64,000 bases of DNA from an uncultured Mycoplasmatota bacterium (GTDB lineage: Bacteria > Bacillota_I > Bacilli_A > RF39 > UBA660): positions 12,630-76,629 of the forward strand of contig USFG01000003.1 in NCBI GenBank assembly GCA_900553855.1. Direction: 5' to 3'. Within the stretch, counting starts at the first letter, position 1. Each line of letters starts with the position of its first letter. Below, in pieces: positions 17,881 through 41,925 of the stretch. A program made the position numbers and the translations under genes. The notes under the pieces are model-generated. The model ran no database searches and was not told the DNA's origin. It worked only from the letters and a program-made list of their open reading frames with translations.

Positions 17881-18099
17881 ATGAATTGCAATAACTGTAA
17901 TAACTGTAATAACTTTAATAATTTTCATAATCCTTTTAATAGATTTAGTTCGTTTATTTTATTTTTAGTACTTTGTACCTTAATATTTTATCAAGCAATA
18001 ATAACTTTTTTCTTTCCACTTAGATGGAACATAATCATACTATTTATTGAAATATTTCTTCAGTTTTATTTATTATTTAGAATAATATGGCCTAATTAA
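17881..18099 (+). CDS. Small membrane protein with a Cys/Asn-repeat N-terminus (uncertain)
   Basis: ATG 17881 lies behind an AGGTGA SD (17870-17875). A possible TTAACA-N18-TATAAT promoter is present. The N-terminus MNCNNCNNCNNFNNFHN is followed by two TM helices. The gene converges on and overlaps the ysxE 3' end by 27 nt. Confidence 0.3.
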   Translation: MNCNNCNNCNNFNNFHNPFNRFSSFILFLVLCTLIFYQAIITFFFPLRWNIIILFIEIFLQFYLLFRIIWPN

Positions 18100-19627: not shown

Positions 19628-19717
19628 ATAATCATTTTCCTTTCTTTTCAAAATAATTATATGAATAGGAAAAAAAGATATTCGCGAATATTCTTAAATA
19701 TCTTTATATTTTTTACG

Positions 19718-21049: not shown

Positions 21050-21128
21050 TCTATTCCTCTATCTTTATCTTATAACAATAATATATCACGTTTTTTGAAC
21101 GACTTTTATAAATTATGTATTATTTTGA

Positions 21129-21920: not shown

Positions 21921-21935
21921 ATTATGTTTTCCTCT

Positions 21936-23843: not shown

Positions 23844-23904
23844 TACCCTATGGTAAGTATATCATATAATAAATGTTTGTAGCAATTTTTTAAGATTTTT
23901 AGCA

Positions 23905-23930
23905 AAATAAAAACCAGATAACCTATCTGG
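23905..23930 (-). terminator. Rho-independent terminator closing the T4SS-like locus
   Basis: Stem CCAGATA/TATCTGG (23914-23920 / 23924-23930) with a 3-nt loop and a T-run on the minus strand. Lies 3 nt after the stop of 23934..24491. Confidence 0.5.
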
Positions 23931-23933
23931 AAT

Positions 23934-24491
23934 TTATGCAGCACTAAATAGAATTCTTGTTTCAAAGTTTTTATTTGCTTTAGTATTAGTGGTGTAATAA
24001 TAGATTACATAGGTGTGAACACTATTTTGAGATTCGGTACTAAAGAAACCATTACCTAAATCCATTACACTTTGACCTTCTTGTTTATTTAAATAGTATT
24101 TTGTTTTGGCATCAGCAAATTCTGTTTTAACACCGTTTTCATCGGTTTTACCACCTAGGATAAAATATACTTCATTATCTTCATATTCGTTATAGTTTAC
24201 TAGTAGAGATAACTTATAATTAATAATATCGGTTGCACTGTTATTTGTTCCTGTTAATGAAAATGTTTTAGAACCAATAAGTTCTCCTTGTTTTTCATAA
24301 TCGCTTGATTTAAATACTGGATTATTGCCTTGATAAGCAGCAATCATTTTACCATCTTTAACTTCAATAACGTCTAATTGGACACTTCCATCTAAACCAC
24401 TAGTCATATATGAAAAGCTTGTTCCTATTGTAACAACGACAATGATTGCAACTAACATTATACCTAATAAGGTTTTATTCATTTTATTCAT
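23934..24491 (-). CDS. TasA/camelysin-like (SipW-type signal) secreted protein, last gene of the T4SS-like operon
   Basis: Start at ATG 24491 behind a GAAGGTGA SD; the track's longer ORF start is unsupported. The N-terminus is MNKMNKTLLGIMLVAIIVVVTIGTSFSYMTSG, followed by a beta-rich region (FSLTGTNNS, YKLSLLVN). Confidence 0.6.
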   Translation of the reverse strand: MNKMNKTLLGIMLVAIIVVVTIGTSFSYMTSGLDGSVQLDVIEVKDGKMIAAYQGNNPVFKSSDYEKQGELIGSKTFSLTGTNNSATDIINYKLSLLVNYNEYEDNEVYFILGGKTDENGVKTEFADAKTKYYLNKQEGQSVMDLGNGFFSTESQNSVHTYVIYYYTTNTKANKNFETRILFSAA

Positions 24492-24545
24492 TTTATCACC
24501 TTCTATATTAATATTACTAAATTTAATAGAAAACTTCAATTATTT

Positions 24546-26810
24546 TTATTCACTAAAGAAATCGTCAAAGTATTCATCATCACTTGGATCGTTAACAACT
24601 TTACTATCTTTATCAACGACAATCTTAGGTTCATCTTTAACATTGTTCTTGGAATTATCACTTTGTTTAAAGAAATCATCGAATTTTTCAACCATAGTTG
24701 AATCTAGTTTATCGTAATCTGTAATTTTATTTGCTTGATTATTTTGTTTCTTTTGCTCTTCTTGTTCTTCTTTTTCTAATTCAGCAATTTTAGCATCGAT
24801 CTTTTTTAATATGTTGTCAACATCAAAATCGGGCTTAGAATTTATATTTTGTTCATTAGCACTTTTTTGAATCATTGGCAAATCTAAGAAGTCAGTTTTA
24901 TCTAAATCTTTTTTATCAGTTGGTTTTTGGTTTAACAAACTATTAAAGTCAAATGGAACACTATTTCCGCCAAATGGAGTATTATTACCAGATGGTTTAT
25001 TTAATCCTTCAAAAATATTACCAATTGGTTTTCCACCACCAAAACCTGCTCCATTCATTCCCATTCCACCATTATTTACGGATTCTAGAAACTTACTTTG
25101 CTTTTGATCTTGAACATATTTTTTAAAATCAAATATTTCAACAGGCGTTTGTTTTCTTTCAATAAATGGGGATTCTTCATCACTATGTCCCCAATTAATT
25201 TCATAACTTGGTGTTAATTTTGTTTTGTAGGGATTCATTCTTTGTCTTAAAATAACAACTTGGAATTTTTTTAGTTTTTGTAAATCACTTGGTGTTAATA
25301 ATGGACGTGATGCGGTTTTTTCTTTTTCTTTTGATTTAATTTCACCACATAATTTACTTATTTCATCTAAATCAGCTAAATCACTACTATTAATAAATAT
25401 TTTATTACCACAGTTACCTTTAATTGTATCGGCTTGTTCTTTGCCATATACATCATTTAACTGAGAAAATCCTTGAATAATAAAGGTAAATCTTATATTT
25501 CTTGAACGAGCTGCTGAAACCATTGCTGTAACATCTTTAAGTGGTGGCATGTTGGCAAACTCATCTAAAATAAAGTTGGTTCTTATTGGTAATTTTCCTT
25601 TTGGTGATTTGTGAGCAACATCAACTAAAACTTCATAAGCTTGTTTTAAGAAAATCGTTGCTAGTGGATGGTATGTTGTTTTTTCATCATGTATTACGAC
25701 GAATAAAGCTGTCTTTTCAGTACCTATTTTATGCATATCAAAATCACTATAACTAAGCATTTGACTTAAGTTTTTTTGTGTTGTAAATTTTTCCATTTTT
25801 TCACTAAATACGGATAACACACTGGTTCTTGTTTCAGTTGGACCAGTAATTGTTGATTTAGCAAAGTTATATGGTGTTGAATCTTTACCCTTTAAATTAA
25901 AGTATTCTGTCGAAAAGTTACTGTTCATTCCCATTTTTTCTTCACCGACAGCGGCCATATAGTTTATTGAATTAATATTAATATATTTTTCTTCAGCATC
26001 TTGAAATAAACCAAGTGCTAAACCATTGAAGTATCCCATACTAGCATTTCCCCAGAATGGATCATTTGCTTTAGGATCATTAACCATATTAAATGAAACG
26101 TCTTTTAATAACTCAATTGCTTTATCTTCGTTTCCTTGTTTATATAGATCATAAGGTATTGCCAAGGGATTCCAAGCATTTCCCATTTGTGGATCACGGA
26201 AATTTAATGTAATAATATTGTAACCTTTACTTCTTAAGAAATTAGCATGATCTCTATATAATTCACCTTTGGGGTCAGTAATAATCATTGATTCACCTTT
26301 ACGGCCTAAGCTTTCAATCATCGGCTCAACTACACATTGACTCTTACCGTTACCAGTTGATCCAATAACTAAGGTATGATATGAACCGTTATCTACCCAC
26401 ATAGCCTTGCCGTCATTAACCATAGGAACACCACCATATTCACTAGTTAATTCACTAATAACAACTTTTTTGACATCATCAGCATTTTTCATTTCTTTAT
26501 CAGTGGTGAATCTGGTATAACCTTTTTCCTCTTCTTTTTCACCTATTTTTAAACCTATTCCTCTACCTTTTTCATGGTCGAATATATATGAAGATATACT
26601 TAAAAATATTGATACTAAAACAGCAATAAACACAAATAAGGTAGCTGGTAAATAAGGTGGAAATAATCCAGCAAAAAAATTCAATCCATATAATTTTCCC
26701 TCGTTTAACAATGATGATAAGTTAACTACTGCTAATGAACATAAAATTAATAAAAATATACTATATATTACAAACATTATTAAATCTTTAGATGATACTC
26801 TAAATTTCAT
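24546..26810 (-). CDS. virD4: Type IV coupling protein (VirD4/TraG family)
   Basis: N-terminal TM helices, Walker A VIGSTGNGKSQ, ITDPKGELY, NAWNPL and Walker B-like FILDEFANMP. A ~200-aa low-complexity C-terminal tail ends in DDEYFDDFFSE. Confidence 0.9.
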   Translation of the reverse strand: MKFRVSSKDLIMFVIYSIFLLILCSLAVVNLSSLLNEGKLYGLNFFAGLFPPYLPATLFVFIAVLVSIFLSISSYIFDHEKGRGIGLKIGEKEEEKGYTRFTTDKEMKNADDVKKVVISELTSEYGGVPMVNDGKAMWVDNGSYHTLVIGSTGNGKSQCVVEPMIESLGRKGESMIITDPKGELYRDHANFLRSKGYNIITLNFRDPQMGNAWNPLAIPYDLYKQGNEDKAIELLKDVSFNMVNDPKANDPFWGNASMGYFNGLALGLFQDAEEKYININSINYMAAVGEEKMGMNSNFSTEYFNLKGKDSTPYNFAKSTITGPTETRTSVLSVFSEKMEKFTTQKNLSQMLSYSDFDMHKIGTEKTALFVVIHDEKTTYHPLATIFLKQAYEVLVDVAHKSPKGKLPIRTNFILDEFANMPPLKDVTAMVSAARSRNIRFTFIIQGFSQLNDVYGKEQADTIKGNCGNKIFINSSDLADLDEISKLCGEIKSKEKEKTASRPLLTPSDLQKLKKFQVVILRQRMNPYKTKLTPSYEINWGHSDEESPFIERKQTPVEIFDFKKYVQDQKQSKFLESVNNGGMGMNGAGFGGGKPIGNIFEGLNKPSGNNTPFGGNSVPFDFNSLLNQKPTDKKDLDKTDFLDLPMIQKSANEQNINSKPDFDVDNILKKIDAKIAELEKEEQEEQKKQNNQANKITDYDKLDSTMVEKFDDFFKQSDNSKNNVKDEPKIVVDKDSKVVNDPSDDEYFDDFFSE

Positions 26811-26859
26811 GTTAATCCCTCTTCTCTTCTTTAAATTATATAATATTATTTATTATATT

Positions 26860-28173
26860 TCAATTCTTACAATTAGCAGAATAGTAAGAACTCATATCTA
26901 TAACAGTATAGCTCTTTAATTCTTGATATGTATACTTTTTATAATCAAGTCCACTAGCATCTATATAGGCTACGGTAACATTTTCACCAGTATTTTGAAC
27001 TATAATGTATGCTTTATCTTCATTAATTACTAGATTTCCTGGATTTCCATATGCTAAATCAATTATATTTGATCTATCATTGTAATCACTAATATTAGTT
27101 ATAGGATTATTTATATTAGCACTATTTATGGCCCAATTTATAAGACTATATTCATTTAAACCAACTATATTACCATCAATTGTTTTTCCCCAATCTGGAT
27201 CAATAACTTTATATTCACTAGAAATATTACTATAAGGAATTTTATAGCCTTTCTTTCCTACTTCATCAATAAGAGTTACTGCTTTTTGAGCTACATTTAT
27301 TCCATTACATTGGTTATTACCAGCATTATTAATCTTATCTGTTAATTCAGTTATTCCATCTTCACCAATTTTTTCACCTAAACTAACTGATAAAACTTCA
27401 TTATCACTACTTGAGAAATCAGTGTCGGATTCTACTGTTCCAGTTTGATAATTAAGATTGCCAAAATTCCAAGTTGTCGTTTCTAAAATATTTTGTTCAT
27501 CACCATCAATTATGTAAAAAAGAAATAGAAAAAGGAATGCAACTCCGAATGCAGCGGCACATATACCTATTATTTTTAATTTTATTATAAGGAGTTTCTT
27601 GTTACCTAAAAATGATGCTGCTCCTCCTTTTTTGCCACCGATTAATCCAGTTATAGCGCTTGATGCATTACCTTTTCCTTTTAATAAACCGCTTATTCCT
27701 TGAGCTTTTGCACCTAATGGACTATTACCTGTAAGCCCATCTTTTGGTGATAAGGGACTCGAGCTGCCAGGACTTGCTGATGATAATGGATTATTATTAG
27801 CTATTCCTTTTAATGGATTTATCATTCTATTTGCTTTATTGGCAGCAAGTTTAGCTAAAGGATTATTACTTTGGTTTAATGCATTTAAGGTATTTTGCCC
27901 TTTAGTAATTAAATTTCTTCCTAAATTTGTACGAGAAAACTTATTATAAGCATTAGCTCCGACAGCAGTTGCAGCAGTAATAGCTGCACTTTTTGCTAGT
28001 TCTTTCATAGGATCAGATGAATACTGATTATTTGGCTTTTTTGCTATATTTGGCTCATTAATATTATTATCTTCTGGTAAATCTTCACTTTCAACTTCAG
28101 TTTGTTCACTTACTTCTTCAGATAAGTTTTCATTTTCTAATTCTTCATCTAAAGTTTCATAATCATTATTCAT
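26860..28173 (-). CDS. Bitopic T4SS-associated protein with [NS]PL repeats
   Basis: Acidic N-terminus and five [NS]PL motifs in a Gly/Ser/Lys-rich linker. One TM helix (IIGICAAAFGVAFLFLFLFYII). The ~200-aa external domain has a QCNGINVAQ motif; a papain-like/NlpC-P60-type fold is only a guess. Confidence 0.5.
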   Translation of the reverse strand: MNNDYETLDEELENENLSEEVSEQTEVESEDLPEDNNINEPNIAKKPNNQYSSDPMKELAKSAAITAATAVGANAYNKFSRTNLGRNLITKGQNTLNALNQSNNPLAKLAANKANRMINPLKGIANNNPLSSASPGSSSPLSPKDGLTGNSPLGAKAQGISGLLKGKGNASSAITGLIGGKKGGAASFLGNKKLLIIKLKIIGICAAAFGVAFLFLFLFYIIDGDEQNILETTTWNFGNLNYQTGTVESDTDFSSSDNEVLSVSLGEKIGEDGITELTDKINNAGNNQCNGINVAQKAVTLIDEVGKKGYKIPYSNISSEYKVIDPDWGKTIDGNIVGLNEYSLINWAINSANINNPITNISDYNDRSNIIDLAYGNPGNLVINEDKAYIIVQNTGENVTVAYIDASGLDYKKYTYQELKSYTVIDMSSYYSANCKN

Positions 28174-28184
28174 ATAATCACTCC

Positions 28185-28655
28185 TTAATTAATTCTTATC
28201 TTATAGTTGTTAATACTATTTTCAATAAAAACAAATTTATTATCGTCTTTATCAATTACATATACTGCTCTTTTGCCATCCACTATTCCACTAGAATAGC
28301 TTTTAACTTCAGCACTTAAAAACTTAATTGTTTTAATACTTGTAATCATTTTTTCAAATTCACTGTAAGTGGAATATTTATTTCTTGTTTCATTATCCAA
28401 ATTATTATATACATCTTTGGGATTATATAATATATCAGATACCAAATTGGCTAAATATTTGGATGAAATTTCCGCAGATGATAAATATAATCTTTGAATT
28501 TCATTTACTTTATAATCATGGAAATATTCAGTAAAATCATTAAATGTATTGGTTTTGTTAGCATTTTTACTATAAATTAATCCAAAAATGATTGTTCCAA
28601 TTATTGATATAACACTTATTATAATTACTATTTTTTCATCACTTTTGCTTTTCAT
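28185..28655 (-). CDS. Bitopic membrane protein (possible VirB8-like/NTF2-like component)
   Basis: N-terminal TM helix plus a ~120-aa alpha/beta domain. Overlaps the upstream paralogue by 17 nt. The functional assignment rests on architecture only. Confidence 0.4.
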   Translation of the reverse strand: MKSKSDEKIVIIISVISIIGTIIFGLIYSKNANKTNTFNDFTEYFHDYKVNEIQRLYLSSAEISSKYLANLVSDILYNPKDVYNNLDNETRNKYSTYSEFEKMITSIKTIKFLSAEVKSYSSGIVDGKRAVYVIDKDDNKFVFIENSINNYKIRIN

Positions 28656-29157
28656 TTATTACCTCATTATATTTAGTCTTATCAATAGGTGTTATTGAAA
28701 ATAATTTAAAATCTTTATCAACTTTTATAAATAAATATTCATCTTCTAGTTTATTAACTTTATTTTTTAATTCTTCATATACAGTACCTTTTACGTAATA
28801 GATATTGTCATGCATATACATTCCATTTAGTCTAATACTTATGTTTTTACCAATATATTTATTATTTAAATTATCTATATTATTATTAATACTATTTAAA
28901 TACTCTTGATCTAATATTTTTTTTAAACTGTCTTTATCATTTAAGGATAGATAACTTAAATATTTATTTACACAATTTTCTATTGTAAAAAAATCACTAT
29001 AATCATTAACTGTTTCATAAACATATGGTTTGGTTGTTTCAGGAACAACTTTATTATTTTCTTTTTTATTAGTACTAACGATATAAATTAAAACCCCAAC
29101 TAAAATAACAAAAATTATCATTAATATTATATTATTTATATTACTTTTATTCTTCAT
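28639..29157 (-). CDS. Bitopic membrane protein (possible VirB8-like/NTF2-like component)
   Basis: N-terminal TM helix plus a ~130-aa domain (FFTIENCVNKYLSYLSLNDKDSLKKILDQEY...YYVKGTVYEE...FIKVDKDFKLFSITP). Same architecture as 28185..28655. Confidence 0.4.
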   Translation of the reverse strand: MKNKSNINNIILMIIFVILVGVLIYIVSTNKKENNKVVPETTKPYVYETVNDYSDFFTIENCVNKYLSYLSLNDKDSLKKILDQEYLNSINNNIDNLNNKYIGKNISIRLNGMYMHDNIYYVKGTVYEELKNKVNKLEDEYLFIKVDKDFKLFSITPIDKTKYNEVINEKQK

Positions 29158-29168
29158 ATTTTTCCTTT

Positions 29169-31214
29169 TTAACTATTGCATCCATTAGTAACGTAATTAT
29201 AGTAGGATCTAGCATTATTTACTCTTGTTGTATCACATTGGGTGTGTTCTGTAGGATTTTCAAAATTATGGCAAAAATTTGATGTGATACTATCAACAGA
29301 TTCACTACCAGACATGATAGCATTATATAAACCACTATAACCGCTTTTAAGTTCTATAAACAAATAACTTATTTGGTTACCAGGATCACCTATTGATACT
29401 CCATTTTGTTTTGCGGAGTTTAGTAATCCGGCTTTTCTAGTGGAAAATGTCCATTGACATAATCCATAACCCGCATCATCATTTGCAAAATTAGTATATG
29501 TTCCATTATCAACGGCGGCTGTATAACTTTCATCAGTATGGCCAAGTGGCCCTTCAAAAGTATTTTGTAAATTAATATAATTGAATGCACTTTCAGCATT
29601 TATATTTGACATAATTGCCGCAATACCATTATCAGATGCTCCATATTCTTTTAAAGTTAAACAAACTGTTTGAGTCTTTGTTCCACCATTAATAGTACCT
29701 ACAGTTGATGGTTGAGGTCTAGGATTTTGGCTCGAAATATATGTGTTAGGATTTACTCTTGCTCCTGATGATATTTTAATTTCAAAATGAAGAGCTTTTT
29801 CATTAGTATCACCAGTTGTACCCATAGTACCAAGAACTTCTCCCTGAGTTACACTTTGTCCATCAGTAACATATACTTGATCTAAATATGCATATGTTGA
29901 ACTCATTCCATCAGAATGACTTACAACTACCATATTTCCATAGCCTGAATTACATGTTTTATCTCCTGATTCACAATTATTAACTACTTTAGAAACTACT
30001 CCAGACTTAATGCTTATTATATTAACTAAATCTTCACTTGATCCAATATCTATTCCCTCATTAGAACCAGGACTATAATCCTTAATTATATAGGCAGATA
30101 CTGGATTACCTTTAGCAAATTTTTTACCATTTTCCTCAGTAATTTCAGTACTCCCAATTGGATAATAATATTTATTATCAACACTAGTAAAATAAGTTAA
30201 ACTTTCAGGATTACTTCTATAAAACAATTCTAGGTTGTATTTAATTGCATCTATTATTTCTTGTCTTTCTTCAACTATTTTATCATGATATTTGTTATAT
30301 AGTTCATCATCATTTTCCATTGCCGATTCTAAATCTTCTAAAGTTTTGTAGCCAGATTCATCTACAATATGGGAAAAACGATATTGTAAATGAGGTTTTT
30401 TATCAAAATATTCACTTGTTTTTAAAAATTCCCAATATGCATCTTCACTAACTGTTTTATTATTAGCAACTGTATATGTGCCACCGCGATTTAAACATTC
30501 TTGATGTTTTTCGCTTCGAGTTATTCCAAAAAAATTGGTTAATCCAGATTTAACTAATAATTTTTCACCAAATGAGGCCATAGTAACTGAATCGACTGCT
30601 TTACAAGTAAAAGTATCACCTTCTTTGTGAAGTTCTCCTTGAGGACACGTTGGTACTGATTGATTATTTTCATTAATTTCATAAACTGGAGCAGTTGCAA
30701 CACTACATGTTGCCTCATAACCAATCATCGCTTTAATTAAAATTTTAATTGCATTTGATTCGGATGTTAGGGATGTATATCCCTCTTCCTCTTCATTATC
30801 ATCTATAGATATTTCATCATTTTCATTTTCAAAATCAAATGAAATTTTATCGAACCATCTTTTATAAAAAGCATTATCATCTCTAAATGAATCAGCATTT
30901 AGGCCATAATAAATAGTTGCAATAATTATTTCATCTTTAATATATAAACCACTACGTTCATATTTAGCTAACATCTTATATAATTTAGTATAAAATTTCT
31001 TTTGGCTTTTAATAGTTTGTTCAACACATTTTTCACTATCTTCTTCTTTTTCACATGTTCCTGACCAATAATTTTTAAATTGTTCAGCGAAGTCTTCCCA
31101 ATTAAAACTAGCGTAGTTATATCCATCTGCTTTTACATTATTAAATATCAAAAAAAGTGATATACATAATATCATTTTTATTAAAAATGGAATACTTTTA
31201 TTTATCACTTTCAT
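29169..31214 (-). CDS. Secreted cell-wall hydrolase: unknown N-domain, degenerate M23/LytM domain, C-terminal lysozyme-like (phage-tail-lysozyme type) domain
   Basis: Has a signal peptide. The M23 core is GYGNMVVVSHSDGMSSTYAYL..GQSVTQGEVLGTMGTTG. NEGIDIG replaces HxxxD and KALHFE replaces HxH. The C-terminal domain has GIAAIMSNINAESAFN...GYGLCQWT. Confidence 0.8.
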   Translation of the reverse strand: MKVINKSIPFLIKMILCISLFLIFNNVKADGYNYASFNWEDFAEQFKNYWSGTCEKEEDSEKCVEQTIKSQKKFYTKLYKMLAKYERSGLYIKDEIIIATIYYGLNADSFRDDNAFYKRWFDKISFDFENENDEISIDDNEEEEGYTSLTSESNAIKILIKAMIGYEATCSVATAPVYEINENNQSVPTCPQGELHKEGDTFTCKAVDSVTMASFGEKLLVKSGLTNFFGITRSEKHQECLNRGGTYTVANNKTVSEDAYWEFLKTSEYFDKKPHLQYRFSHIVDESGYKTLEDLESAMENDDELYNKYHDKIVEERQEIIDAIKYNLELFYRSNPESLTYFTSVDNKYYYPIGSTEITEENGKKFAKGNPVSAYIIKDYSPGSNEGIDIGSSEDLVNIISIKSGVVSKVVNNCESGDKTCNSGYGNMVVVSHSDGMSSTYAYLDQVYVTDGQSVTQGEVLGTMGTTGDTNEKALHFEIKISSGARVNPNTYISSQNPRPQPSTVGTINGGTKTQTVCLTLKEYGASDNGIAAIMSNINAESAFNYINLQNTFEGPLGHTDESYTAAVDNGTYTNFANDDAGYGLCQWTFSTRKAGLLNSAKQNGVSIGDPGNQISYLFIELKSGYSGLYNAIMSGSESVDSITSNFCHNFENPTEHTQCDTTRVNNARSYYNYVTNGCNS

Positions 31215-31233: not shown

Positions 31234-33027
31234 TTATAGTCCGCCACCTGAACCAAATGAATCTAGTTCTTCTTGTGTTAAGATTACATTAATTCTCATA
31301 CGACGGTTTCCACATACAAATAATGCTTCACCTTGACTATATGTTTTAATACTTTCTTTTTCGTTATCATTTAAGTCGATTAATCTTGCTAAATCTTCAA
31401 CTGCTTGTTTACGTAATCCCATAACCAAATAATAAGATGCATTATCAAATATAGCTTTACCATGAACAAATACTTTTTCAGCTGCAAAGTCGGTAGGTTG
31501 TTGAGTAATAATTATTGTTCCAGTATTATATTTACGACTTCTTCTTTGAACTTGGGCTAAGAATTCAGCACCTAATTCATTTCCAGCACTTAATAAGATA
31601 TGAGCTTCATCAACGTACATAACTGTGTTATTAGATTTATCTAAACATAAACTCCAAGCATATTTTAATATGTTAAAGAATAAAGCATTTCTAATATTTG
31701 CATCACTATTCATTAATTCTTTAATATTAAATACGATAAAATTACTATCGGCTTTTAAAGATGTATGACCATTAAAGTAATATCTTAATTCTCCAATAAA
31801 TGGTCTAACTCTAAGTTCTAGACGTTCCATAACATCTTTTTCTCTTGTTGCTTCTGGCATTGATAATAATTTACCTTTAATAGTTGAATAAACATCATCA
31901 AATGTTGGATATTCATCTGAACTTAAACTACTAAAATCTGAGTTAAAATCAATATTAAATCTTTTATATGTTTCTTGACATACCTCACTAAACATTTGTA
32001 ATACGTCATCTTCAATGGTTGGATAATAGTATTTCATAAATGCTTTTAATGATTGAAGAGTTCTAGTTAAAACTGAGTAACCAGCACCTTCCTTAATTTC
32101 ATCTTCATCAGCATCCATAATTACTTCTAAAGGGTTAATTAAACCAAAAGCTCCACCTTTACCTAAATCAATAAAGTCACCATTAAAGATTTTGGCCATT
32201 TCTTCAAGTTCGCCTTCAGGGTCAATAGCGATTATTTTACAATTATTTCTAATATGAGTTCTTAGTAAAAGTTTAGCAGTTGTTGATTTACCACTACCTG
32301 ATGTTCCTAAGATAATAACATTGGCATTATTTCGGTTATATTCTTTTTTCATTTGATATAAGAATTGGTTAAATAATACAACACCGCCTGAAAAATCAAC
32401 TCCTAATAATGTACTTGATCCAGGATCTTTGATGCTATCGAATACGAATGGGTACATAGCAGCAATTGTTGGAGCAGGAATTGGAATACCTACTCTATCT
32501 TCGATATCTTGTTTAGGGAATATTGGAAGCATTGATTTTAAAACTTTTTCTTGTTCGAACATCATAGGAATTCCACGCATTCCCATGCTATCTAAATAAT
32601 TTCTAACTTGCATTTTTTTATTTTCAAGTTCTTCTTTACTGTCAGCAGTTATCATAACATGCATTTGAAAATCCCATATTTTTGATTGAGTTGCTGCTAA
32701 CATTTGAACAAATGCCTCTAACGATTCATAGTCTTGTCTAAATCTCTCTTGAAGTGTTCTATCATGTTCTTTTTGATATCTTTCTTTTAAATCAACAATT
32801 TCTTTATTAAGCATTTTTTGCATTGATGAAAAAGGAATAGGAATATGCTTAACAACAACTTTAATACCAGGAATATTTGTGACATTTGATAAGAATCCTG
32901 GTTGAATTGTTTTAGGATAACTTATGATTGTCAAAATAGTTGCATATTTATCACTAATCATAAAATCATTAACATTAAATTTCATTCCTTTTGGAGCTAT
33001 TTCACTTTTTAAATTAGCACTACTCAT
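31234..33027 (-). CDS. virB4: VirB4-like conjugation ATPase, C-terminal (ATPase) portion
   Basis: Walker A ILGTSGSGKST, Walker B VMYVDEAH, and IIITQQPTDF. 597 aa, i.e. lacking the usual ~190-aa N-terminal domain, which is encoded by the upstream ORF. Confidence 0.88.
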   Translation of the reverse strand: MSSANLKSEIAPKGMKFNVNDFMISDKYATILTIISYPKTIQPGFLSNVTNIPGIKVVVKHIPIPFSSMQKMLNKEIVDLKERYQKEHDRTLQERFRQDYESLEAFVQMLAATQSKIWDFQMHVMITADSKEELENKKMQVRNYLDSMGMRGIPMMFEQEKVLKSMLPIFPKQDIEDRVGIPIPAPTIAAMYPFVFDSIKDPGSSTLLGVDFSGGVVLFNQFLYQMKKEYNRNNANVIILGTSGSGKSTTAKLLLRTHIRNNCKIIAIDPEGELEEMAKIFNGDFIDLGKGGAFGLINPLEVIMDADEDEIKEGAGYSVLTRTLQSLKAFMKYYYPTIEDDVLQMFSEVCQETYKRFNIDFNSDFSSLSSDEYPTFDDVYSTIKGKLLSMPEATREKDVMERLELRVRPFIGELRYYFNGHTSLKADSNFIVFNIKELMNSDANIRNALFFNILKYAWSLCLDKSNNTVMYVDEAHILLSAGNELGAEFLAQVQRRSRKYNTGTIIITQQPTDFAAEKVFVHGKAIFDNASYYLVMGLRKQAVEDLARLIDLNDNEKESIKTYSQGEALFVCGNRRMRINVILTQEELDSFGSGGGL

Positions 33028-33574
33028 AAGTTACCACCGTCCCAAATTCATTTTTCTGTCCACCATTTAAGAAGTTTTGCAATAAGAATTTTAAATCTTC
33101 ATCGCTTGCTTTACTTGATATTAATCCAATACTTGCTAATTGTGTTATTAATTGTTGAACACGTTTATTAACTACATCTAAATTTTTATCTCTAAATAAT
33201 ATGTAATATTCTGTATCAACTACATTGTATTCATTACCTGAAAATAATTCGGCCTTTTGAATATCTTCAGAAATTAATTTTCTTACAGCTTGTGACTGGG
33301 CATTATCAAAATCAAGTTGTAATTGAGATAAATACATTTTTATATCTACCGGTCTATCGGCAACAATTAACCAAAATTCATAATCAATTGTGTTATAAAA
33401 ATTTCTAAAGTTAAATATAATATTATTTTGAGTTTGATAATCTAAAATAAAGATATTTTTAGGCTCAACTTTGATTCCAGTAACCATCCAATTATTATCT
33501 AGAATTATCATTCCATTTTCTATTTTTTTTACTGGTAACCAATCTTCTGTAAATTTATTTTGTGTCTTCGCCAT
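33020..33574 (-). CDS. VirB4-like ATPase, separately encoded N-terminal domain
   Basis: FTEDWLPVKKIENGMIILDNNWMVTGIKVEPKNIFILDYQTQNNIIFNFRNFYNTIDYEFWLIV follows the N-terminal pattern of Gram-positive VirB4/TraE ATPases. Has an 8-nt overlap (ATGAGTAG) with the ATPase ORF. Confidence 0.65.
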   Translation of the reverse strand: MAKTQNKFTEDWLPVKKIENGMIILDNNWMVTGIKVEPKNIFILDYQTQNNIIFNFRNFYNTIDYEFWLIVADRPVDIKMYLSQLQLDFDNAQSQAVRKLISEDIQKAELFSGNEYNVVDTEYYILFRDKNLDVVNKRVQQLITQLASIGLISSKASDEDLKFLLQNFLNGGQKNEFGTVVTYE

Positions 33575-33875
33575 TTCGAATACACCAACCTTTCCAACGA
33601 TATTCTTTTTGACCTGTAAAATAATTATAAATATTTTTTATAAATGTTCTAACATTGTGTTGGTTTGGAAGTGGTATTACTAGGAATGCACAAAATAACA
33701 TTGGCATTATTATTGATACAATTCCTAGTAATGTACTTGTACTAACCGCAAATAATAATATAAGTGTTATTGTAAAACCAGTTCCAACTATTATTAAATC
33801 GGTGCTATTAAACATTCCTAATATTAACATTGATCTTTTTGAGTTAGCCGGAATTAAATAATCATTATTTCCCAT
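33555..33875 (-). CDS. Small two-TM protein in the VirB3/PrgI/TcpE position
   Basis: 106 aa with two adjacent TM helices. Lies immediately upstream of, and overlapping, the VirB4 N-domain gene. Confidence 0.5.
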   Translation of the reverse strand: MGNNDYLIPANSKRSMLILGMFNSTDLIIVGTGFTITLILLFAVSTSTLLGIVSIIMPMLFCAFLVIPLPNQHNVRTFIKNIYNYFTGQKEYRWKGWCIRNGEDTK

Positions 33876-36844: not shown

Positions 36845-37261
36845 CTATCTTACACAAGTGTTTCCCTGACCCAGTGTTAATTCTAATAAAAAATTTAATA
36901 CTGAAGGTAGCAAATATAAAAGTACCACCAGTGCTAATCTAGTTGTAAACTTTTTGGCAGATTTTTGCAATCCTTCAGCCTGCTTGCTTGTTATTGATAC
37001 AACAAAATCATAACTAGATAGTGCTAAAGTTAACAAAGGGGCAACTATTTTAAATACATTAAATATTGATTGCAAATCTTGACCAAATGAACCTAGTGTA
37101 CTGCAATCTGTATTAGAGTTTTCATTAGCTAGAAGATTTATACCATAAGTATCATTATAATCTAATTTAGATTCAATGCTATCAGCATTTACACTTATAA
37201 AACAAAATAAACATGAAATTATAATAGATATATATATAATTTTATTTTTCATAATTACCAC
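36845..37261 (-). CDS. VirB2/TrbC-like pilin-type membrane protein, paralogue 1
   Basis: Signal peptide, N-proximal Cys (TDCSTLGSFG), two TM helices flanking a polar loop (SITSKQAEGLQKSAKK), and a C-terminal NTCVR. Confidence 0.5.
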   Translation of the reverse strand: MVIMKNKIIYISIIISCLFCFISVNADSIESKLDYNDTYGINLLANENSNTDCSTLGSFGQDLQSIFNVFKIVAPLLTLALSSYDFVVSITSKQAEGLQKSAKKFTTRLALVVLLYLLPSVLNFLLELTLGQGNTCVR

Positions 37262-37298
37262 CTATCATTGCACAATTATACACATAACATTATATCAT

Positions 37299-37327
37299 AC
37301 AAAAAAACAACAGTAAAGTTGTTTTTT
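37299..37327 (-). terminator. Rho-independent terminator after pilin-like paralogue 2
   Basis: Stem AAACAAC/GTTGTTT (37305-37311 / 37318-37324) flanked by A/T runs on both sides. Confidence 0.5.
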
Positions 37328-37339
37328 ATTATTTTATTA

Positions 37340-37693
37340 TTAATCTATTTGTTGTTGTGCTTCTGTACACTTGTATGGAGTTAAGATACATTTTTTACAT
37401 GTATTAAAACCTAGTTCATCAGATGCATCAGTAAATCCATTAACAAGTCCAAATATCCATAAAATAATAGATGGAGATAAGAATATTAAAATTCCAGCTG
37501 CTATTCTTATTCCTAATGATTTAGTATTCTTTTTAATATCATCATCTTTTCCAGATGTTACAGCTTTTCCTAAATCTATTGCTCCTAGTGCAACTATAAT
37601 AACAGGAATAGCAACTTTAAAAATTAATAACACATATCCTAATACTTGTACTACTGCACTCATTTTTGTACAAAAACTTCCTAATCCGCTCAT
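37340..37693 (-). CDS. VirB2/TrbC-like pilin-type membrane protein, paralogue 2 (no signal peptide)
   Basis: Strong AAGGAGAGAG SD. The product starts directly at MSGLGSFCTK, followed by TM1, the loop GAIDLGKAVTSGKDDDIKKN, TM2, and a C-terminal NTCKKCILTPYKC. Confidence 0.55.
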   Translation of the reverse strand: MSGLGSFCTKMSAVVQVLGYVLLIFKVAIPVIIVALGAIDLGKAVTSGKDDDIKKNTKSLGIRIAAGILIFLSPSIILWIFGLVNGFTDASDELGFNTCKKCILTPYKCTEAQQQID

Positions 37694-37767
37694 TTTCTCT
37701 CTCCTTTACATCTAATAAAATTATAAACTATTTATATAATTACGTCAAATATTTTACAATAATATTT

Positions 37768-38736
37768 TTATATTTTTTGTTGTTTATTAAATCCTAATTT
37801 AATTAACAACTTATCTATAGATAGTAATCTATCTTTTTTATCATCAAAATTATTTAAATTATAATAAACTTTTAAATCAGTTTCTTTTTCAAAATAATTG
37901 ATTTCTTCATCTTTTAAAGCACTGCGATTTAACACTATTTTTATATCATTTAGTTTATCTTTATATTTATTAATATTTTTGATAAATTTTGATATTCTAA
38001 TAATACCAGGCTCTAATAAATAAATAATGTCTGTGCATATGTTATTCTTATCTTCAAATTCATTTAAATCAATAATTATTGCATCTATTCCTTTTAATCC
38101 TTGAATCTTTGTTTCAGCTTCTGTGTAGTCGTTACAAAATATTATATCAGGGTTTCTAAAATACATAGCATCAAAACCATTTAGTTCAATACCTTTAACT
38201 TTATAGTTAAACGCTAATTGTTTAACCATTTGTTGCATTAATGTTGTAGATCCGGCACCTTCACTTAGGTTTTTAATACCTATTATTTTCATTTCATTTA
38301 CTTTAAATGCTGAATTAGTGCTACCGATTGAACTATTTAATTCACTTGTAAATGTTGTTGTTTGAATATATTTTTTTACATCTTCATAAGTATTAGATCT
38401 ATTAACTAAGAAACTAACTCCTTGTGAATTACTTGTAAAATTATAATAACCATTATTAATTAACTGGGTTAAAAATTCTTTACTATTACAATAAGCACTA
38501 TCATTTAAAAGTAAAATTACTTTGTCTTTGCCAAAGTAATTTAAAAATTCAAATAAATCAAAACTTGAAAAATAATTTTTTATTGCAGTTATATCAATTA
38601 TTACTTTGTTAAAATAAAAATTTACTAGTTCTTTTTCAACACTGTTAACGTCATAGACTCCATTTAATACTTTAATAATATCTATTGTTAATGAGTTTAC
38701 TACTCTTGTATTTTCATTTACAATTACTAAATTCAT
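37768..38736 (-). CDS. TadZ/CpaE-like protein: receiver-like N-domain plus ParA/MinD-fold domain with degenerate Walker A
   Basis: The N-terminal ~120 aa have a pseudo-receiver pattern (VIIDIT...KVILLLND). This is followed by IIGIKNLSEGAGSTTLM in place of KGGxGK[ST]T, IIIDL (Walker B-like), and LNRS. Confidence 0.5.
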   Translation of the reverse strand: MNLVIVNENTRVVNSLTIDIIKVLNGVYDVNSVEKELVNFYFNKVIIDITAIKNYFSSFDLFEFLNYFGKDKVILLLNDSAYCNSKEFLTQLINNGYYNFTSNSQGVSFLVNRSNTYEDVKKYIQTTTFTSELNSSIGSTNSAFKVNEMKIIGIKNLSEGAGSTTLMQQMVKQLAFNYKVKGIELNGFDAMYFRNPDIIFCNDYTEAETKIQGLKGIDAIIIDLNEFEDKNNICTDIIYLLEPGIIRISKFIKNINKYKDKLNDIKIVLNRSALKDEEINYFEKETDLKVYYNLNNFDDKKDRLLSIDKLLIKLGFNKQQKI

Positions 38737-38745
38737 ATAACCACC

Positions 38746-39210
38746 TTAATCTTTTGCAAAATATACTGCCTTGCTTTCTCCGGTAACTGGAAATGTAAAT
38801 GCGTTATCTAAAATCGGAATATCAAATTTAAAAAACACGGTTACTCTATAATATTTTCTGTTTAAAGTATCTCCTTCAATCGATCTTTCGTAAACACAAT
38901 ATTTATATTTATCAGCATTTCCTTGTTTTTCATATCCCGTTAATTTACCATTTATTGCTCCATCTAGATAATCATCTCCAGTATCAGTACACTTACCATA
39001 TACATAATATCCTGTACTGTTAAGATATTTTACTATTTTTTCCTGAGTTTTATCTGTTAATCCTTCATTTTCTTCAATTAAAGATATAATTTCATTTTTA
39101 ACTTTAAAAGCTTTTGAGTAATTAACAGATAGAGCAAGATAACTAGTGAATAATACAACAAAAGTAATTACAATTCCAACTAGCCAGGCTCCACCAATTG
39201 ACTCTCTCAT
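38746..39210 (-). CDS. TadE-like pseudopilin candidate
   Basis: Short charged leader MRESIGG followed by a hydrophobic helix AWLVGIVITFVVLFTSYLAL. The leader resembles that of the upstream Flp-like gene (KEASGE). Confidence 0.4.
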   Translation of the reverse strand: MRESIGGAWLVGIVITFVVLFTSYLALSVNYSKAFKVKNEIISLIEENEGLTDKTQEKIVKYLNSTGYYVYGKCTDTGDDYLDGAINGKLTGYEKQGNADKYKYCVYERSIEGDTLNRKYYRVTVFFKFDIPILDNAFTFPVTGESKAVYFAKD

Positions 39211-39224
39211 ACTATCTTATAATA

Positions 39225-39488
39225 CTATCCATTATTTGTGTTTGAACTTGTATCTTTTTCAACTGGGCAAACAACATCTTTCATATCGCCATTAGCATCA
39301 TAATATTTACATTTACAAGTACTTTCATTTCCAGAACATTCACAATTAAATTTATTAGCACATTTTGTTTGATTTAAAATATTTACCTTTATTTGTGGCC
39401 AAACAAGTGCTGTAAAAACACCTCCAATAGCCGCAATAGCAACAACTGTGATAGCTGTCATACTTAATTCTCCTGATGCTTCTTTCAT
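39225..39488 (-). CDS. Flp-like small pilin candidate with Cys-rich C-terminus
   Basis: Strong AAGGAGGA SD. The leader MKEASGE is followed by LSMTAITVVAIAAIGGVFTALVW (compare Flp ...G/VTAIEYGLIA, but without EY). The C-terminal part carries 6 Cys. Confidence 0.45.
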   Translation of the reverse strand: MKEASGELSMTAITVVAIAAIGGVFTALVWPQIKVNILNQTKCANKFNCECSGNESTCKCKYYDANGDMKDVVCPVEKDTSSNTNNG

Positions 39489-39528
39489 ATATAAATTCCT
39501 CCTTTATTTTATAATTTTATTATATATC

Positions 39529-39563
39529 AAAAAAAATAAACTATCAATATAATTTGACAGTTT
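39529..39563 (-). terminator. Rho-independent terminator after pilin-like paralogue 3
   Basis: 10-position stem TAAACTATCA/TGACAGTTTA (39537-39546 / 39554-39563, one mismatch) followed on the minus strand by T8. Confidence 0.5.
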
Positions 39564-39578
39564 ATATGTTAAGAGTAA

Positions 39579-39989
39579 TTATTTATTATTTGATTTTGGA
39601 CAATTACTTGGATTAGATATGCATGCTAAACAAGTTTTGTAGTCAGCCGGTTGTTTATTGAAAGCATCTACAACAAGATTAACAAATGTTGGTAAAAAGA
39701 ATACTGCAAAGCCTATTACTATTCTTTTTCCAAGTGTAATTATTTGATTTTTTAAATCATCATCTTTACCGCTTGTTACTGCTTTATATAAATCAAATGT
39801 TCCCATTGCTATTATTAATAATGGCACTATTGTTCTTACTATTAAGATTGAGTAAGACACTAATTTTAATGTGCTTCCAAAATCTGAGCAAAAATTGTTT
39901 GCTACAGGAGCTTCATTTTCTGCTAGTACATTAATATAACTAAAATTTAATAATAAAATTAATAATTTACTCATAATCATATTTTTCAT
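39579..39989 (-). CDS. VirB2/TrbC-like pilin-type membrane protein, paralogue 3
   Basis: Signal peptide (..NVLA/ENE), NFCSDFGST, TM1, the loop GTFDLYKAVTSGKDDDLKNQ (near-identical to paralogue 2), TM2, and a C-terminal KTCLACISNPSNC. Confidence 0.55.
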   Translation of the reverse strand: MKNMIMSKLLILLLNFSYINVLAENEAPVANNFCSDFGSTLKLVSYSILIVRTIVPLLIIAMGTFDLYKAVTSGKDDDLKNQIITLGKRIVIGFAVFFLPTFVNLVVDAFNKQPADYKTCLACISNPSNCPKSNNK

Positions 39990-41121
39990 CCGCCTTTGCT
40001 GGTATCATATTTTTTATAAATTTAAAGGCTACTACGCCAATAATTCCTATGATTAATAATATTAATAAAATAGTTAAGAAATTACTTTTCTTCTTTGGTA
40101 CTACTACTGTTTCTTTAATAATATTAAAATAAAATGTTTTTTCAGTTAAATCTTCAGCTATTACTTTAACAGTAACTATACTACCATTTACTAAATCACT
40201 ATTGTCATTTATTTCATATGTTGCGTTTTCATCCTCTAATTCAATATTAAAATTTAATGAATTTGTATCTTGGTTTACTACTACATCATAATTTTGTTTA
40301 TTATTATCAAAATCTAAATTGTAATTTTCAATTGTTATATTTTTGATATTGATATTATTTGATAGTGCTTTATAAGTTAAGTTGATAGTATAATCTTTAA
40401 TACTTCCGTCTTCAGCTGTTACAGTAATAATTATGGGATTAATAATACTTATTGGATCATTATTTCTTACATTTACAGTAGCTTTATCTGATTCGGTTTC
40501 ATATTTTATATCTATTTTATTAACTGTTTTATCTATAACTATTTCATAGGTTAATTGTTCTTTATAAAAGTTAATTGTGTATCCTTCAATTGTTAGACTT
40601 TTTAAAAAGGCATTACTATCTTTAACTAGGGCTGTTGTCGTTGTCGTAGTTGTGGTTGTTTTGGTTGGCTTAGTAGTTCTTCTTTTGGTTGTGGTTGTTG
40701 TTCTTTTAGTTGTTTTTGTTTTTTTAGTTGTTGGTTTAGTTGTTGTTTTTTTAGGTATATATATAGATCCATCTGAAACCTTGTCACAATCATAGGCATA
40801 AGTAATACCACAATATGTTTCGGAGCTATTTGAACATGCTCCTTGATAATCATTACAACCAGACGAAATAACATATTGATAATAATCTTCATTACCATTT
40901 GAACAACTAACTGTATTTCCTCTTACAAACAATTTTTGAGTTTGCCATTGACCTTTATCACATTTTGCCTTTATACAATAATTGATACTTCCAGAACCAC
41001 TAGAAATTATTCCTTTAGTTTGAAAATTTGTGCAGTCAAAATAGTTACTACCAAATTTTAGATTAGCACCAAACACGGTTAATGGAAATAATAAACATAT
41101 AAGTAATATTATCTTTTTCAT
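39967..41121 (-). CDS. Surface protein: Cys-rich N-domain, Thr/Lys-rich stalk, two cadherin-like beta-sandwich repeats, C-terminal TM anchor
   Basis: Has a signal peptide and a stalk TTTKPTTKKTKTTKRTTTTTKRRTTKPTKTTTTTTTTT. The beta-sandwich repeats read LKSLTIEGYTINF...YEIVID...VTAEDGSIKDYTINL and IKNITIENYNLDF...VKVIAEDLTEKTFYFNI. The anchor is FLTILLILLIIGIIGVVAF. Confidence 0.7.
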   Translation of the reverse strand: MKKIILLICLLFPLTVFGANLKFGSNYFDCTNFQTKGIISSGSGSINYCIKAKCDKGQWQTQKLFVRGNTVSCSNGNEDYYQYVISSGCNDYQGACSNSSETYCGITYAYDCDKVSDGSIYIPKKTTTKPTTKKTKTTKRTTTTTKRRTTKPTKTTTTTTTTTALVKDSNAFLKSLTIEGYTINFYKEQLTYEIVIDKTVNKIDIKYETESDKATVNVRNNDPISIINPIIITVTAEDGSIKDYTINLTYKALSNNINIKNITIENYNLDFDNNKQNYDVVVNQDTNSLNFNIELEDENATYEINDNSDLVNGSIVTVKVIAEDLTEKTFYFNIIKETVVVPKKKSNFLTILLILLIIGIIGVVAFKFIKNMIPAKADEKYDYE

Positions 41122-41135
41122 AACAACCTCTTTCC

Positions 41136-41163
41136 AAAAAAATAATACCGTAATGGTATTATT
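41136..41163 (-). terminator. Rho-independent terminator after 41206..41823
   Basis: 9-bp stem AATAATACC/GGTATTATT (41141-41149 / 41155-41163) with a 5-nt loop and T7 on the minus strand. Confidence 0.55.
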
Positions 41164-41205
41164 TCACCAAGACCTATAATAATAATATCATAATATTATT
41201 ATTTT

Positions 41206-41823
41206 TTAAATCTTTTTAAACACATTTTTCTTATCTACAACATATAAAAGTGCTGTTACAGCAATGCCGATTGTTCCAAGTGCTATAAAATAATCTTCAA
41301 CACCTGTTTCTTTGTTATCAGTTGTACCTGTATCTTTTGTAGTATCGCCATCTTTGTTTCCACTATTTGTAGTTGTAGTAGTTGTTGTACTATATGGTTT
41401 TTTATTATCATCAGTACTTCCTGCTAAATAATCACAATCAAATTTATAAATTCTTGTTGCATATAATTTACTTTCATTTTCATCAGCAGTACATGCACTG
41501 CCATTTTCAATTGATTTTCCTTTTGTTCCATCAACTACATTGTTATAGTATGGATTAGTATTACCATTTGCACATGTTAATGTACTTGCAATAGCACTAT
41601 TCATAATAGTATAAACTCTTTTGCCATTAGTACATGTTATTTCTAATCCTTCAATGTAGAAACCGTTTGTAGCATTTTTTATACTTTCATTAAGTTTAAG
41701 TGATTCTTCAACTTGTGGTTTTGCATCTGCTGCTGCTCCAATTGCTTGAGTACTGCTACTAACCTCAGCTCTAACTGCCAAAGGCATAACTAATAACAAT
41801 CCTAAAATAAACATCTTTTTCAT
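41206..41823 (-). CDS. Surface protein with the same Cys-rich N-domain, Thr-rich stalk and C-terminal TM anchor
   Basis: Start at ATG 41823 behind a GGAGGAAAG SD. Has a signal peptide (..AVRA/E). The domain ...TCANGNTNPYYNNVV..GSAC....YKFDCD is paralogous to 39967..41121 (..SCSNGNEDYYQYVI..GAC...YAYDCD). Confidence 0.6.
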   Translation of the reverse strand: MKKMFILGLLLVMPLAVRAEVSSSTQAIGAAADAKPQVEESLKLNESIKNATNGFYIEGLEITCTNGKRVYTIMNSAIASTLTCANGNTNPYYNNVVDGTKGKSIENGSACTADENESKLYATRIYKFDCDYLAGSTDDNKKPYSTTTTTTTNSGNKDGDTTKDTGTTDNKETGVEDYFIALGTIGIAVTALLYVVDKKNVFKKI

Positions 41824-41925
41824 ATTTCTTTCCTCCATTTATTCCTTGCTTACTTTACTTTTCTATTAAACTATTAATAGTATACCATAAAATTTTATAA
41901 ATAAACATATAATTTTTTTATTTAT

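Follow-up and report, generated by a model that had tools for sequence, protein, structure and literature searches.

In order to characterize three small membrane proteins marked in an initial annotation of an uncultured Mycoplasmatota bacterium, we analysed their genes, here termed A, B and C, together with the type IV secretion system (T4SS) cluster in which they lie. The DNA studied was a 64 000 nt stretch of contig USFG01000003.1 (assembly GCA_900553855.1), referred to below as the window, with positions counted from its first letter. A, B and C are probably VirB2-type hairpin subunits, related to the T4SS_pilin family, of a T4SS in a monoderm host; a disulfide would staple each subunit and B would be the major one. 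This reading is built on the paralogy, shared architecture, family link, synteny, cysteine conservation and expression signals that we observed for these genes.

All three open reading frames (ORFs) were found on the minus strand where the initial annotation had placed them (Table 1), and the paralogy it proposed was borne out by pairwise BLASTP comparison, in which B and C shared 33 % identity (E-value 3e-24), whilst A matched B with an E-value of 1e-11 and C with an E-value of 3e-8. A hidden Markov model (HMM) built from the family agreed, with A, B and C as its sole matches among all six-frame ORFs of the window. The common architecture also held: each protein comprises an N-terminal tail with a Cys residue, a first transmembrane (TM) helix, a Lys-rich loop, a second TM helix and a C-terminal tail with Cys, and the loop and C-terminal Cys strings match those quoted earlier. 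The N-terminal motif, given as C(S/T)xxGS, proved not to be general; the Cys alone is invariant, usually as FC. AlphaFold2 (AF2) models of B and of mature A were plain helical hairpins, with helices at residues 12–47 and 50–83 in B (predicted local distance difference test score 77) and at 27–65 and 69–103 in mature A (score 62). The description of A, B and C as hairpin membrane proteins inside a T4SS cluster is supported.

Signal peptides had been assigned to two of the proteins, and the N-termini of A and C are indeed signal-peptide-like with AxA-type sites. The probable start of A is the ATG at 37252, which has a ribosome-binding site (RBS; AGGTGG) and agrees with homologues of 133–142 aa; A lies immediately upstream of the gene for a VirB6-like protein. 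For C the probable start is the ATG at 39980, giving a 133 aa product that matches its homologues, and this start overlaps the 3′ end of the upstream gene for a 384 aa surface protein. B has no signal peptide, because no start codon lies between its ORF and the preceding in-frame stop, leaving no room for an N-terminal extension, and because all of its homologues are equally short. The further claim that B begins exactly at the mature N-terminus of the others is correct as an approximation, the distances to the N-tail Cys being different: 7 residues precede it in B, ~10 in C after the predicted cleavage site (between VLA and EN) and ~27 in A.

The link to the predicted family PF18895 (T4SS_pilin) runs through relatives. 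A, B and C do not match this profile even at E ≤ 1 and do not reach its gathering threshold of 26.6 bits, whilst 19 of 36 close homologues match it at E ≤ 1 (three of the 36 match CagC and one matches DUF4134, weakly), as do 72 of the 150 best representatives at E ≤ 0.01, with a best E-value of 1.1e-7. Among these 150 it is by far the most frequent Pfam family. The alignments span profile positions of about 5–71 of 71, and a homologue with 48 % identity to B (P0046) has a precomputed PF18895 match. A, B and C are connected to PF18895 members by transitive homology, and they combine a two-helix hairpin and short polar loop with a T4SS neighbourhood, as judged from the AF2 models, hydropathy, neighbouring genes and synteny. 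That relatives match the profile and the three proteins themselves do not places A, B and C, as far as sequence comparison goes, within or beside the T4SS_pilin family. Among NCBIfam models, the most frequent match was to Mbov_0395 ('pilin-like conjugal transfer protein', NF045849), which was weak and found in 9 of 44 members (best E-value 1.8e-3). A, B and C gave no match to this model and did not reach its curated cutoff; A does occupy the corresponding position, directly upstream of an MMCAP2_0566-type protein that is followed by an Mbov_0397-type VirB4. The VirB2/TrbC family PF04956 was absent from the listed matches of A, B and C, nor was it among the 25 most frequent of the 43 families matched by relatives.

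An exhaustive profile search showed the family to be large, with 10 181 representative clusters at E ≤ 1e-3 and 5857 at E ≤ 1e-10. Among the top 150 representatives, 46 consist of the domain only and 96 carry an N-terminal extension of 100–430 residues ahead of a C-terminal hairpin. A signal-peptide-like segment opens 83 of 91 N-extended relatives, and in some cases the extension is a GDSL lipase or an alpha/beta hydrolase, and in one a Peptidase_C39_2 domain (relatives P0097–P0244). Using the B-clade alignment to scan species-representative genomes, we located the B-type branch in at least 184 loci of gut Firmicutes, the best 80 of which (L001–L080) were used for synteny counts. Their hosts are mostly labelled as uncultured gut 'Bacilli bacterium' or 'Tenericutes bacterium', Ca. 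Coprovivens, Ca. Ventrenecus and Firmicutes CAG:582, with a few labelled otherwise (Muribaculaceae, Erysipelotrichaceae, Clostridium sp.). A search of 72 556 plasmids by tblastn with B, the VirB6-like protein and a 635 aa ORF of the window returned no match.

Gene order is conserved across these loci: a gene for the 384 aa surface protein is followed by C, genes for proteins of 87, 154 and 322 aa (hereafter the 87/154/322 genes), B, further family genes, A, the VirB6-like gene, genes for proteins of 106 and 184 aa, VirB4 and a hydrolase gene. In the 41 loci holding both the 322 aa gene and the VirB6-like gene, which we treated as complete arrays, 2–7 family genes lie between the two (two genes in 19 loci, three in 13, four in 1, five in 4, six in 3 and seven in 1). 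The first of them is always a short B-type gene (109–155 aa), those in the middle are N-extended and the last is of A-type; identity within an array is ~23–33 %. Arrays of up to seven family genes precede the VirB6-like gene in, for example, L046, L049, L051 and L065.

The cysteines follow a pattern whose core is kept across the three clades. A-type proteins have exactly one Cys in the N-tail and one situated 3 residues from the C-terminus; B has Cys8 together with C99-x2-C102-x6-C109, and C shows the same four-Cys pattern. The N-tail Cys (C8), a Pro in the first TM helix and the first C-tail Cys (C99) are invariant over all three clades, to which the B- and C-types add CxxCx6C. The full four-Cys alignment is present in 167 of 247 sequences, most of the others being alignment shifts or A-type. 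The placing of both Cys-bearing tails outside the membrane, as first suggested, is favoured by the signal peptides, by the secreted N-terminal fusions, by the two hydrophobic helices and by a positive-inside distribution of Lys and Arg, with means of 5.5 in the loop, 0.9 in the N-tail and 2.7 in the C-tail, and we infer a tails-out topology. With both tails outside, a disulfide between N-tail and C-tail, supplemented in B and C by another pair within the C-tail, would fit the Cys conservation, especially that of the two-Cys A-type; inter-subunit disulfides are an alternative. The pattern is suggestive of an end-to-end linkage that could be a counterpart of the cyclization of canonical pilins, as had been proposed. 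A lipoprotein reading of the N-tail Cys was rejected because there is no lipobox, and a cytoplasmic zinc site formed by the four Cys was rejected because the signal peptides would put the tails outside and the A-type has only two Cys. The number of extracytoplasmic Cys is even in every predicted secreted protein of the upstream half of the cluster (36845–41838), with four in the 210 aa protein, eight in the 384 aa protein, four in C, six in the short ectodomain of the 87 aa protein, two in the 154 aa protein, four in B and two in A, which implies disulfide-rich surface proteins in a Firmicute.

Hairpins followed by a run of 7–8 T lie behind both B and C, with minimum free energies of −10.8 kcal/mol for the 61 nt window after B (z −2.8) and −11.7 kcal/mol for the 71 nt window after C (z −3.2). 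The initial annotation had called these canonical terminators; the hairpins exist and have comparative support, but 'canonical' is generous given their AT-rich stems, on account of which a consensus terminator scan requiring at least 3 G–C pairs reported neither. In related loci, a hairpin with T-run follows 76 of 166 B-type genes (46 %), as against 0–9 % for the neighbouring 87/154/322, A, VirB6-like and VirB3-like genes, a rate that covers the stretch from the 87/154/322 genes to the N-terminal part of VirB4; the signal is commoner after the gene for the 210 aa surface protein (5/6) and after VirB4 (9/35). Stem sequences of the hairpins behind B-type genes vary between loci. Upstream of B-type genes, a promoter-like site scoring at least 10 of 12 was found in 47 of 50 related loci, ~24–29 nt 5′ of the start codon, whereas control regions had a mean score of 7.6 of 12, and the RBS of B is AAGGAG. 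On the strength of the conserved near-consensus promoter-like site and the frequent terminator-like hairpins, B seems to be expressed as a unit of its own and at a high level, which reinforces an earlier suggestion of abundant expression. The −35 element of the next promoter-like site lies in the loop of the hairpin after B and in the 3′ arm of that after C, making for very compact terminator/promoter junctions.

We propose that each subunit would insert into the membrane with its tails out, leaving the Lys-rich loop on the cytoplasmic side; A and C would do so by way of their Sec signal peptides and B most likely through translocation of its 7-residue N-tail, in the manner of YidC-dependent hairpins. 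Outside the membrane, the invariant N-tail Cys would bond with the invariant first C-tail Cys, and B and C would have a second pair in the C-tail; the disulfide linking the subunit ends would stabilize the subunit. B, with its own near-consensus promoter, strong RBS and terminator boundary, would serve as the major subunit, and A, presumably translated with the VirB6-like protein, together with the N-extended paralogues of other species, would provide the minor or adapter subunits, which bear surface domains. Subunits may then be extracted from the membrane by the VirB6-like, VirB3-like and VirB4 machinery and polymerized into a conduit or a short pilus that spans the cell wall. Both the polymerization and the division into major and minor subunits are what we infer from the genes and their arrangement.

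A number of results weigh against a pilin-type role. A, B and C have no Pfam or NCBIfam match even at E ≤ 1, and what hits there were (to G-protein-coupled receptor and DUF families) were rejected as noise. Many relatives score below 26.6 bits on PF18895, including all five matches from ten individually scanned relatives, and the name T4SS_pilin is itself a prediction. Comparison of the family with canonical VirB2 by hhalign gave a probability of 0.7 %, the reference being a narrow set (a seven-sequence alphaproteobacterial alignment from PLSDB plasmids). The family profile found no solved pilin among PDB sequences, giving TM noise from G-protein-coupled receptors, and a Foldseek search of the PDB with the models of B and mature A, which has little power for a two-helix fold, returned generic hairpins (HtrII, ATP synthase subunit c), all at E > 2. 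The window yielded no thiol oxidase, and no pilus has been observed for a monoderm T4SS (PMC12857230). Finally, in seven of the 80 loci, B-type and 87/154/322 genes stand beside housekeeping genes, and neither VirB6 nor VirB4 adjoins them. Membership of canonical VirB2/TrbC was rejected on sequence grounds because of the hhalign result. The VirB2/TrbC-likeness first claimed is therefore upheld in part, by the T4SS_pilin link, the weak CagC and Mbov_0395 matches, the hairpin and the T4SS context, but not by any VirB2/TrbC profile or fold match. The architecture is VirB2-like, canonical membership is not demonstrable, and the term pilin-like is partly supported, through family link, architecture and context rather than through direct VirB2 similarity or fold searches.

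It is conceivable, although we hold it to be somewhat unlikely, that the proteins are non-polymerizing membrane parts of the T4SS channel or two-helix anchors that tether surface domains such as adhesins, lipases and hydrolases, the short forms being accessory like the small membrane proteins of other Gram-positive T4SSs. The 96 N-extended relatives among the top 150, some with lipase or hydrolase domains, would suit such anchors, as would the fact that proven pilins are unmatched by structure or profile; the domain-only B-type, however, which is present in 41 of 41 complete arrays and is the most conserved member, anchors nothing and appears to be served by a strong promoter and a terminator of its own. 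In Mycoplasma integrative and conjugative elements (ICEs), the corresponding small proteins are termed VirB3-like in the literature, not pilins (PMC12857230), yet the top family match here is T4SS_pilin rather than VirB3 or PrgI, and a separate VirB3-like gene already lies directly upstream of VirB4. A VirB3/PrgI identity failed: hhalign against a VirB3 control alignment from PLSDB plasmids gave 0.05 %, A and C have signal peptides, and the 106 aa protein fills the VirB3 position. We consider it improbable that B works with the 87/154/322 genes in a mini-module resembling type IV pilus or Tad systems, with prepilin-type leaders and a TadZ-like protein, instead of with the T4SS. B does stand directly behind the 322 aa gene in every case, the leaders MKEAxG and MREAIG are near-invariant, related plasmid T4SSs adjoin Tad-like genes, and the seven loci mentioned above (L006, L007, L011, L012, L015, L016 and L020; e.g. 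L012:4065-10330) have a block of dnaB–dnaI–384–154–87–154–322–B followed by MurJ-like, TrmB, YtxH, HAD and tyrosyl-tRNA synthetase genes, with no VirB6 or VirB4 within 10 kb. Because of these loci, the B module can exist without adjacent T4SS genes, and B may be tied to the 87/154/322 module; alternatively, those seven genomes may have their T4SS genes at another place. Against a Tad-like module stand the homology of B to A, C and PF18895 proteins, a window that holds no TadA/CpaF ATPase, platform protein or prepilin peptidase, and a TadZ identity of the 322 aa protein that has no database support. As small two-TM proteins with Cys-rich tails and no direct database match, A, B and C might conceivably be holins, bacteriocins, immunity proteins or other unrelated proteins that merely sit in the island, but this is very improbable: synteny with T4SS genes is kept in dozens of species, relatives consistently match T4SS_pilin, and there are no adjacent lysis or bacteriocin genes.

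Canonical VirB2/TrbC pilins polymerize with phospholipid into a pilus, and some of them are peptide-cyclized head to tail. Like these proteins (Agrobacterium VirB2, RP4 TrbC), A and C have a predicted signal peptide, and all three have two hydrophobic helices, a short basic loop and ends predicted to lie outside, their genes likewise belonging to a virB-type cluster. They differ in lacking detectable sequence or profile similarity and a Foldseek match, in being Cys-rich with a C-tail of 25–35 residues, in including one member without a signal peptide, in lying beside virB6 rather than virB3 and in their monoderm host; where VirB2/TrbC ends are tied by peptide cyclization, those of A, B and C are possibly tied by a disulfide. 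According to a review of December 2025, VirB2 and VirB5 are absent from Gram-positive T4SSs, Patescibacteria excepted, and no conjugative pili are encoded; in Patescibacteria an essential array of six VirB2-like pilins makes a pilus possible (PMC12857230). A 2025 survey counted 2–11 such pilins per array in genomes of the candidate phyla radiation (CPR), mostly without relaxases (PMC12102498). The PF18895 arrays of Patescibacteria, such as the six-gene array of Southlakia epibionticum (PMC12102498, PMC12857230), resemble the present one in consisting of small hairpins near an MPF_FATA-like VirB4/VirB6/VirB3 cluster, in being made of divergent paralogues (2–7 here, 2–11 in CPR; identity ~23–33 % here, mean 25 % in CPR) and in their chromosomal setting, where no relaxase is detectable. 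PF18895 is likewise matched by relatives of A, B and C, the three proteins themselves remaining under its threshold. Unlike in Patescibacteria, the host belongs to a walled, spore-forming Firmicute lineage (metagenome-assembled genomes of gut 'Bacilli/Tenericutes'), the N-tail/C-tail Cys pattern is invariant, one conserved member lacks a signal peptide and has its own putative promoter and terminator, many paralogues carry large secreted N-terminal domains, and the genes are interleaved with a prepilin-like/TadZ-like trio.

The order small hairpin protein–VirB6-like–VirB4 is shared with Mycoplasma ICEs (Mbov_0395, Mbov_0396/MMCAP2_0566, Mbov_0397), which are also the best NCBIfam matches of the VirB4 and VirB6-like proteins, although all scores here lie below the curated cutoffs. 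In contrast with these elements, the present cluster has a cell-wall hydrolase, VirB8-sized bitopic proteins and multiple pilin-like paralogues, and no DDE recombinase or other mobility gene was detected for it. Tandem, divergent pilin paralogues within one T4SS locus are also known from the variable VirB2/VirB5 arrays of Bartonella Trw and Anaplasma, where they have been proposed to diversify surface binding (PMC12857230); those hosts are diderm and the pilins are canonical VirB2, whereas here it is chiefly the ectodomains fused at the N-terminus that vary. The plasmid T4SSs with the closest VirB4, on Bacillus thuringiensis pBMB68 (L093:6649-7029) and on a Mycoplasmatota plasmid (L092:3640-3978), have small, non-homologous proteins of the form signal/leader–TM–polar loop–TM directly upstream of their VirB6-like genes, and Tad-like genes (SAF/CpaB, CpaF, TadB/C) are found near them. 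Our family HMM did not detect the hairpin proteins at this position in either plasmid. Monoderm T4SSs may generally have a hairpin gene just before the VirB6-like gene.

We found no description of this family in gut Bacilli among the papers searched, and A, B and C form part of a large, unstudied branch of the predicted T4SS_pilin family in a group of Gram-positive systems that reviews hold to be pilin-less. If proteins of this type assemble, the pilus-less picture of monoderm T4SSs would need revision; the invariant cysteines offer a simple, testable chemical handle, and the fused ectodomains suggest that abundant, uncultured bacteria of the gut equip a secretion apparatus with enzymes or adhesins in a modular way. 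A more far-reaching version, which we regard as distinctly doubtful, is that walled gut 'Bacilli/Tenericutes' with reduced genomes build a true T4SS pilus or trans-wall conduit from disulfide pseudo-cyclized subunits, a redox equivalent of VirB2/TrbC cyclization, with the B-type as major subunit and interchangeable minor subunits that display enzymes or adhesins. Fixed in the chromosome by dnaB–dnaI and with no detectable relaxase, such a system would serve cell–cell contact or exchange, as in Patescibacteria, rather than plasmid conjugation.

Table 1. Genes and candidate expression signals of the cluster, in window coordinates
Feature	Coordinates	Strand	Basis or remark
A, pilin-like, signal peptide, 135 aa	36845..37252	minus	ORF 36845-37261; homologues, RBS
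B, short pilin-like, no signal peptide, 117 aa	37340..37693	minus	ORF, homologues
C, pilin-like, signal peptide, 133 aa	39579..39980	minus	ORF 39579-39989; homologues
AT-rich hairpin + T-run after B, terminator candidate	37299..37327	minus	Folding; comparative enrichment
12 bp hairpin + T8 run after C, terminator candidate	39528..39565	minus	Folding
Promoter-like site of B	37720..37748	minus	TTGACG-17-TATAAT, 11/12 matches
Promoter-like site of A/VirB6-like operon	37289..37317	minus	TTTACT-17-TG-n-TATAAT
Promoter-like site of 87/154/322 genes	39519..39547	minus	TTGATA-17-TATAAT, 11/12 matches
384 aa (cadherin-like domains) and 210 aa Cys-rich surface proteins	39967..41838	minus	
87 aa, 154 aa and 322 aa genes between C and B	37768..39488	minus	Synteny
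VirB6-like polytopic membrane protein, 981 aa	33887..36832	minus	NCBIfam MMCAP2_0566 conjugal transfer, E 6.4e-12, below cutoff; TM; synteny
VirB3-like 2-TM protein, 106 aa	33555-33875	minus	TM segments, position
Split VirB4 ATPase, 184 + 597 aa	within 31234..33875	minus	Mbov_0397 ICE VirB4 model; Pfam
M23 + lysozyme cell-wall hydrolase	within 24546..31214	minus	
Two bitopic proteins, 156 and 172 aa	within 24546..31214	minus	
437 aa membrane protein	within 24546..31214	minus	
VirD4 coupling protein	within 24546..31214	minus	CD1115 family, 298 bits vs 250-bit cutoff
635 aa protein without matches	within 14197-24539		Downstream of VirD4
Radical SAM/SPASM enzyme	21129-21920		Downstream of VirD4
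Immunoglobulin-like + Peptidase_C39_2 protein	19718-21049		Downstream of VirD4
LysM protein	within 14197-24539		Downstream of VirD4
802 aa protein with ALK/LTK glycine-rich domain	14619-17027		Downstream of VirD4

Elsewhere in the cluster, the two halves of VirB4 are overlapping ORFs (31234-33574) that match consecutive parts of the Mbov_0397 ICE VirB4 model in NCBIfam (E-value 4e-106 for the 597 aa part and 1e-15 for the 184 aa part), and Pfam AAA_10 and TraG P-loop matches were also obtained; the split is kept in related loci. Beyond VirB4, the hydrolase gene is followed by the genes for the two small bitopic proteins and then by VirD4. The 384 and 210 aa surface proteins have Thr-rich linkers and C-terminal TM anchors and are candidate adhesins. 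Synteny of the 87/154/322 genes is kept in ~50 of the 80 loci. Their products have no Pfam match, and PDB sequence searches with the 322 and 154 aa proteins found nothing. The products of the 87 and 154 aa genes (38746-39488) begin with near-invariant six-residue leaders ending in Gly, MKEA[TS]G and MRE[AS]IG, each followed by ~20 hydrophobic residues, which look like a type IV prepilin (class III) signal; a prepilin peptidase is not present in the window. The 322 aa gene (37768-38736) lies directly upstream of B in ~50 loci. By eye, its cytoplasmic product appears to have a receiver-like N-terminal domain and a degenerate MinD/ParA core (GAGSTT, IIIDLN, IVLNRS), and from these motifs alone it reads as TadZ/CpaE-like, there being no Pfam, NCBIfam or PDB sequence match. 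Downstream of VirD4 (14197-24539) lie several further genes (Table 1), and a PDB sequence search with the 635 aa protein encoded there returned nothing.

The window has a GC content of ~26 % and nearly every gene is on the minus strand. The T4SS island of ~28 kb lies between frr and dnaI–dnaB (13619-45209), with housekeeping genes on both flanks, YceG, RuvX, FtsK, MiaA, MutL, MutS and RRF on one and DnaB/DnaI helicase-loader genes, CotE, FtsEX and RmuC on the other. From these flanks it follows that the host, an uncultured, low-GC gut bacterium, is a spore-forming Firmicute and that the cluster is on its chromosome. Pfam and NCBIfam scans found no relaxase or integrase between frr and dnaI, the island (13.4-43.1 kb) is not flanked by direct repeats, and the whole window is devoid of tRNA genes; as these signatures of mobility were not found in or around the island, a recently integrated ICE is not supported. 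The dnaB–dnaI genes stand next to the island again in several divergent species, a recurrence that points to a locus fixed in the chromosome and not to an ICE that was mobile until recently.

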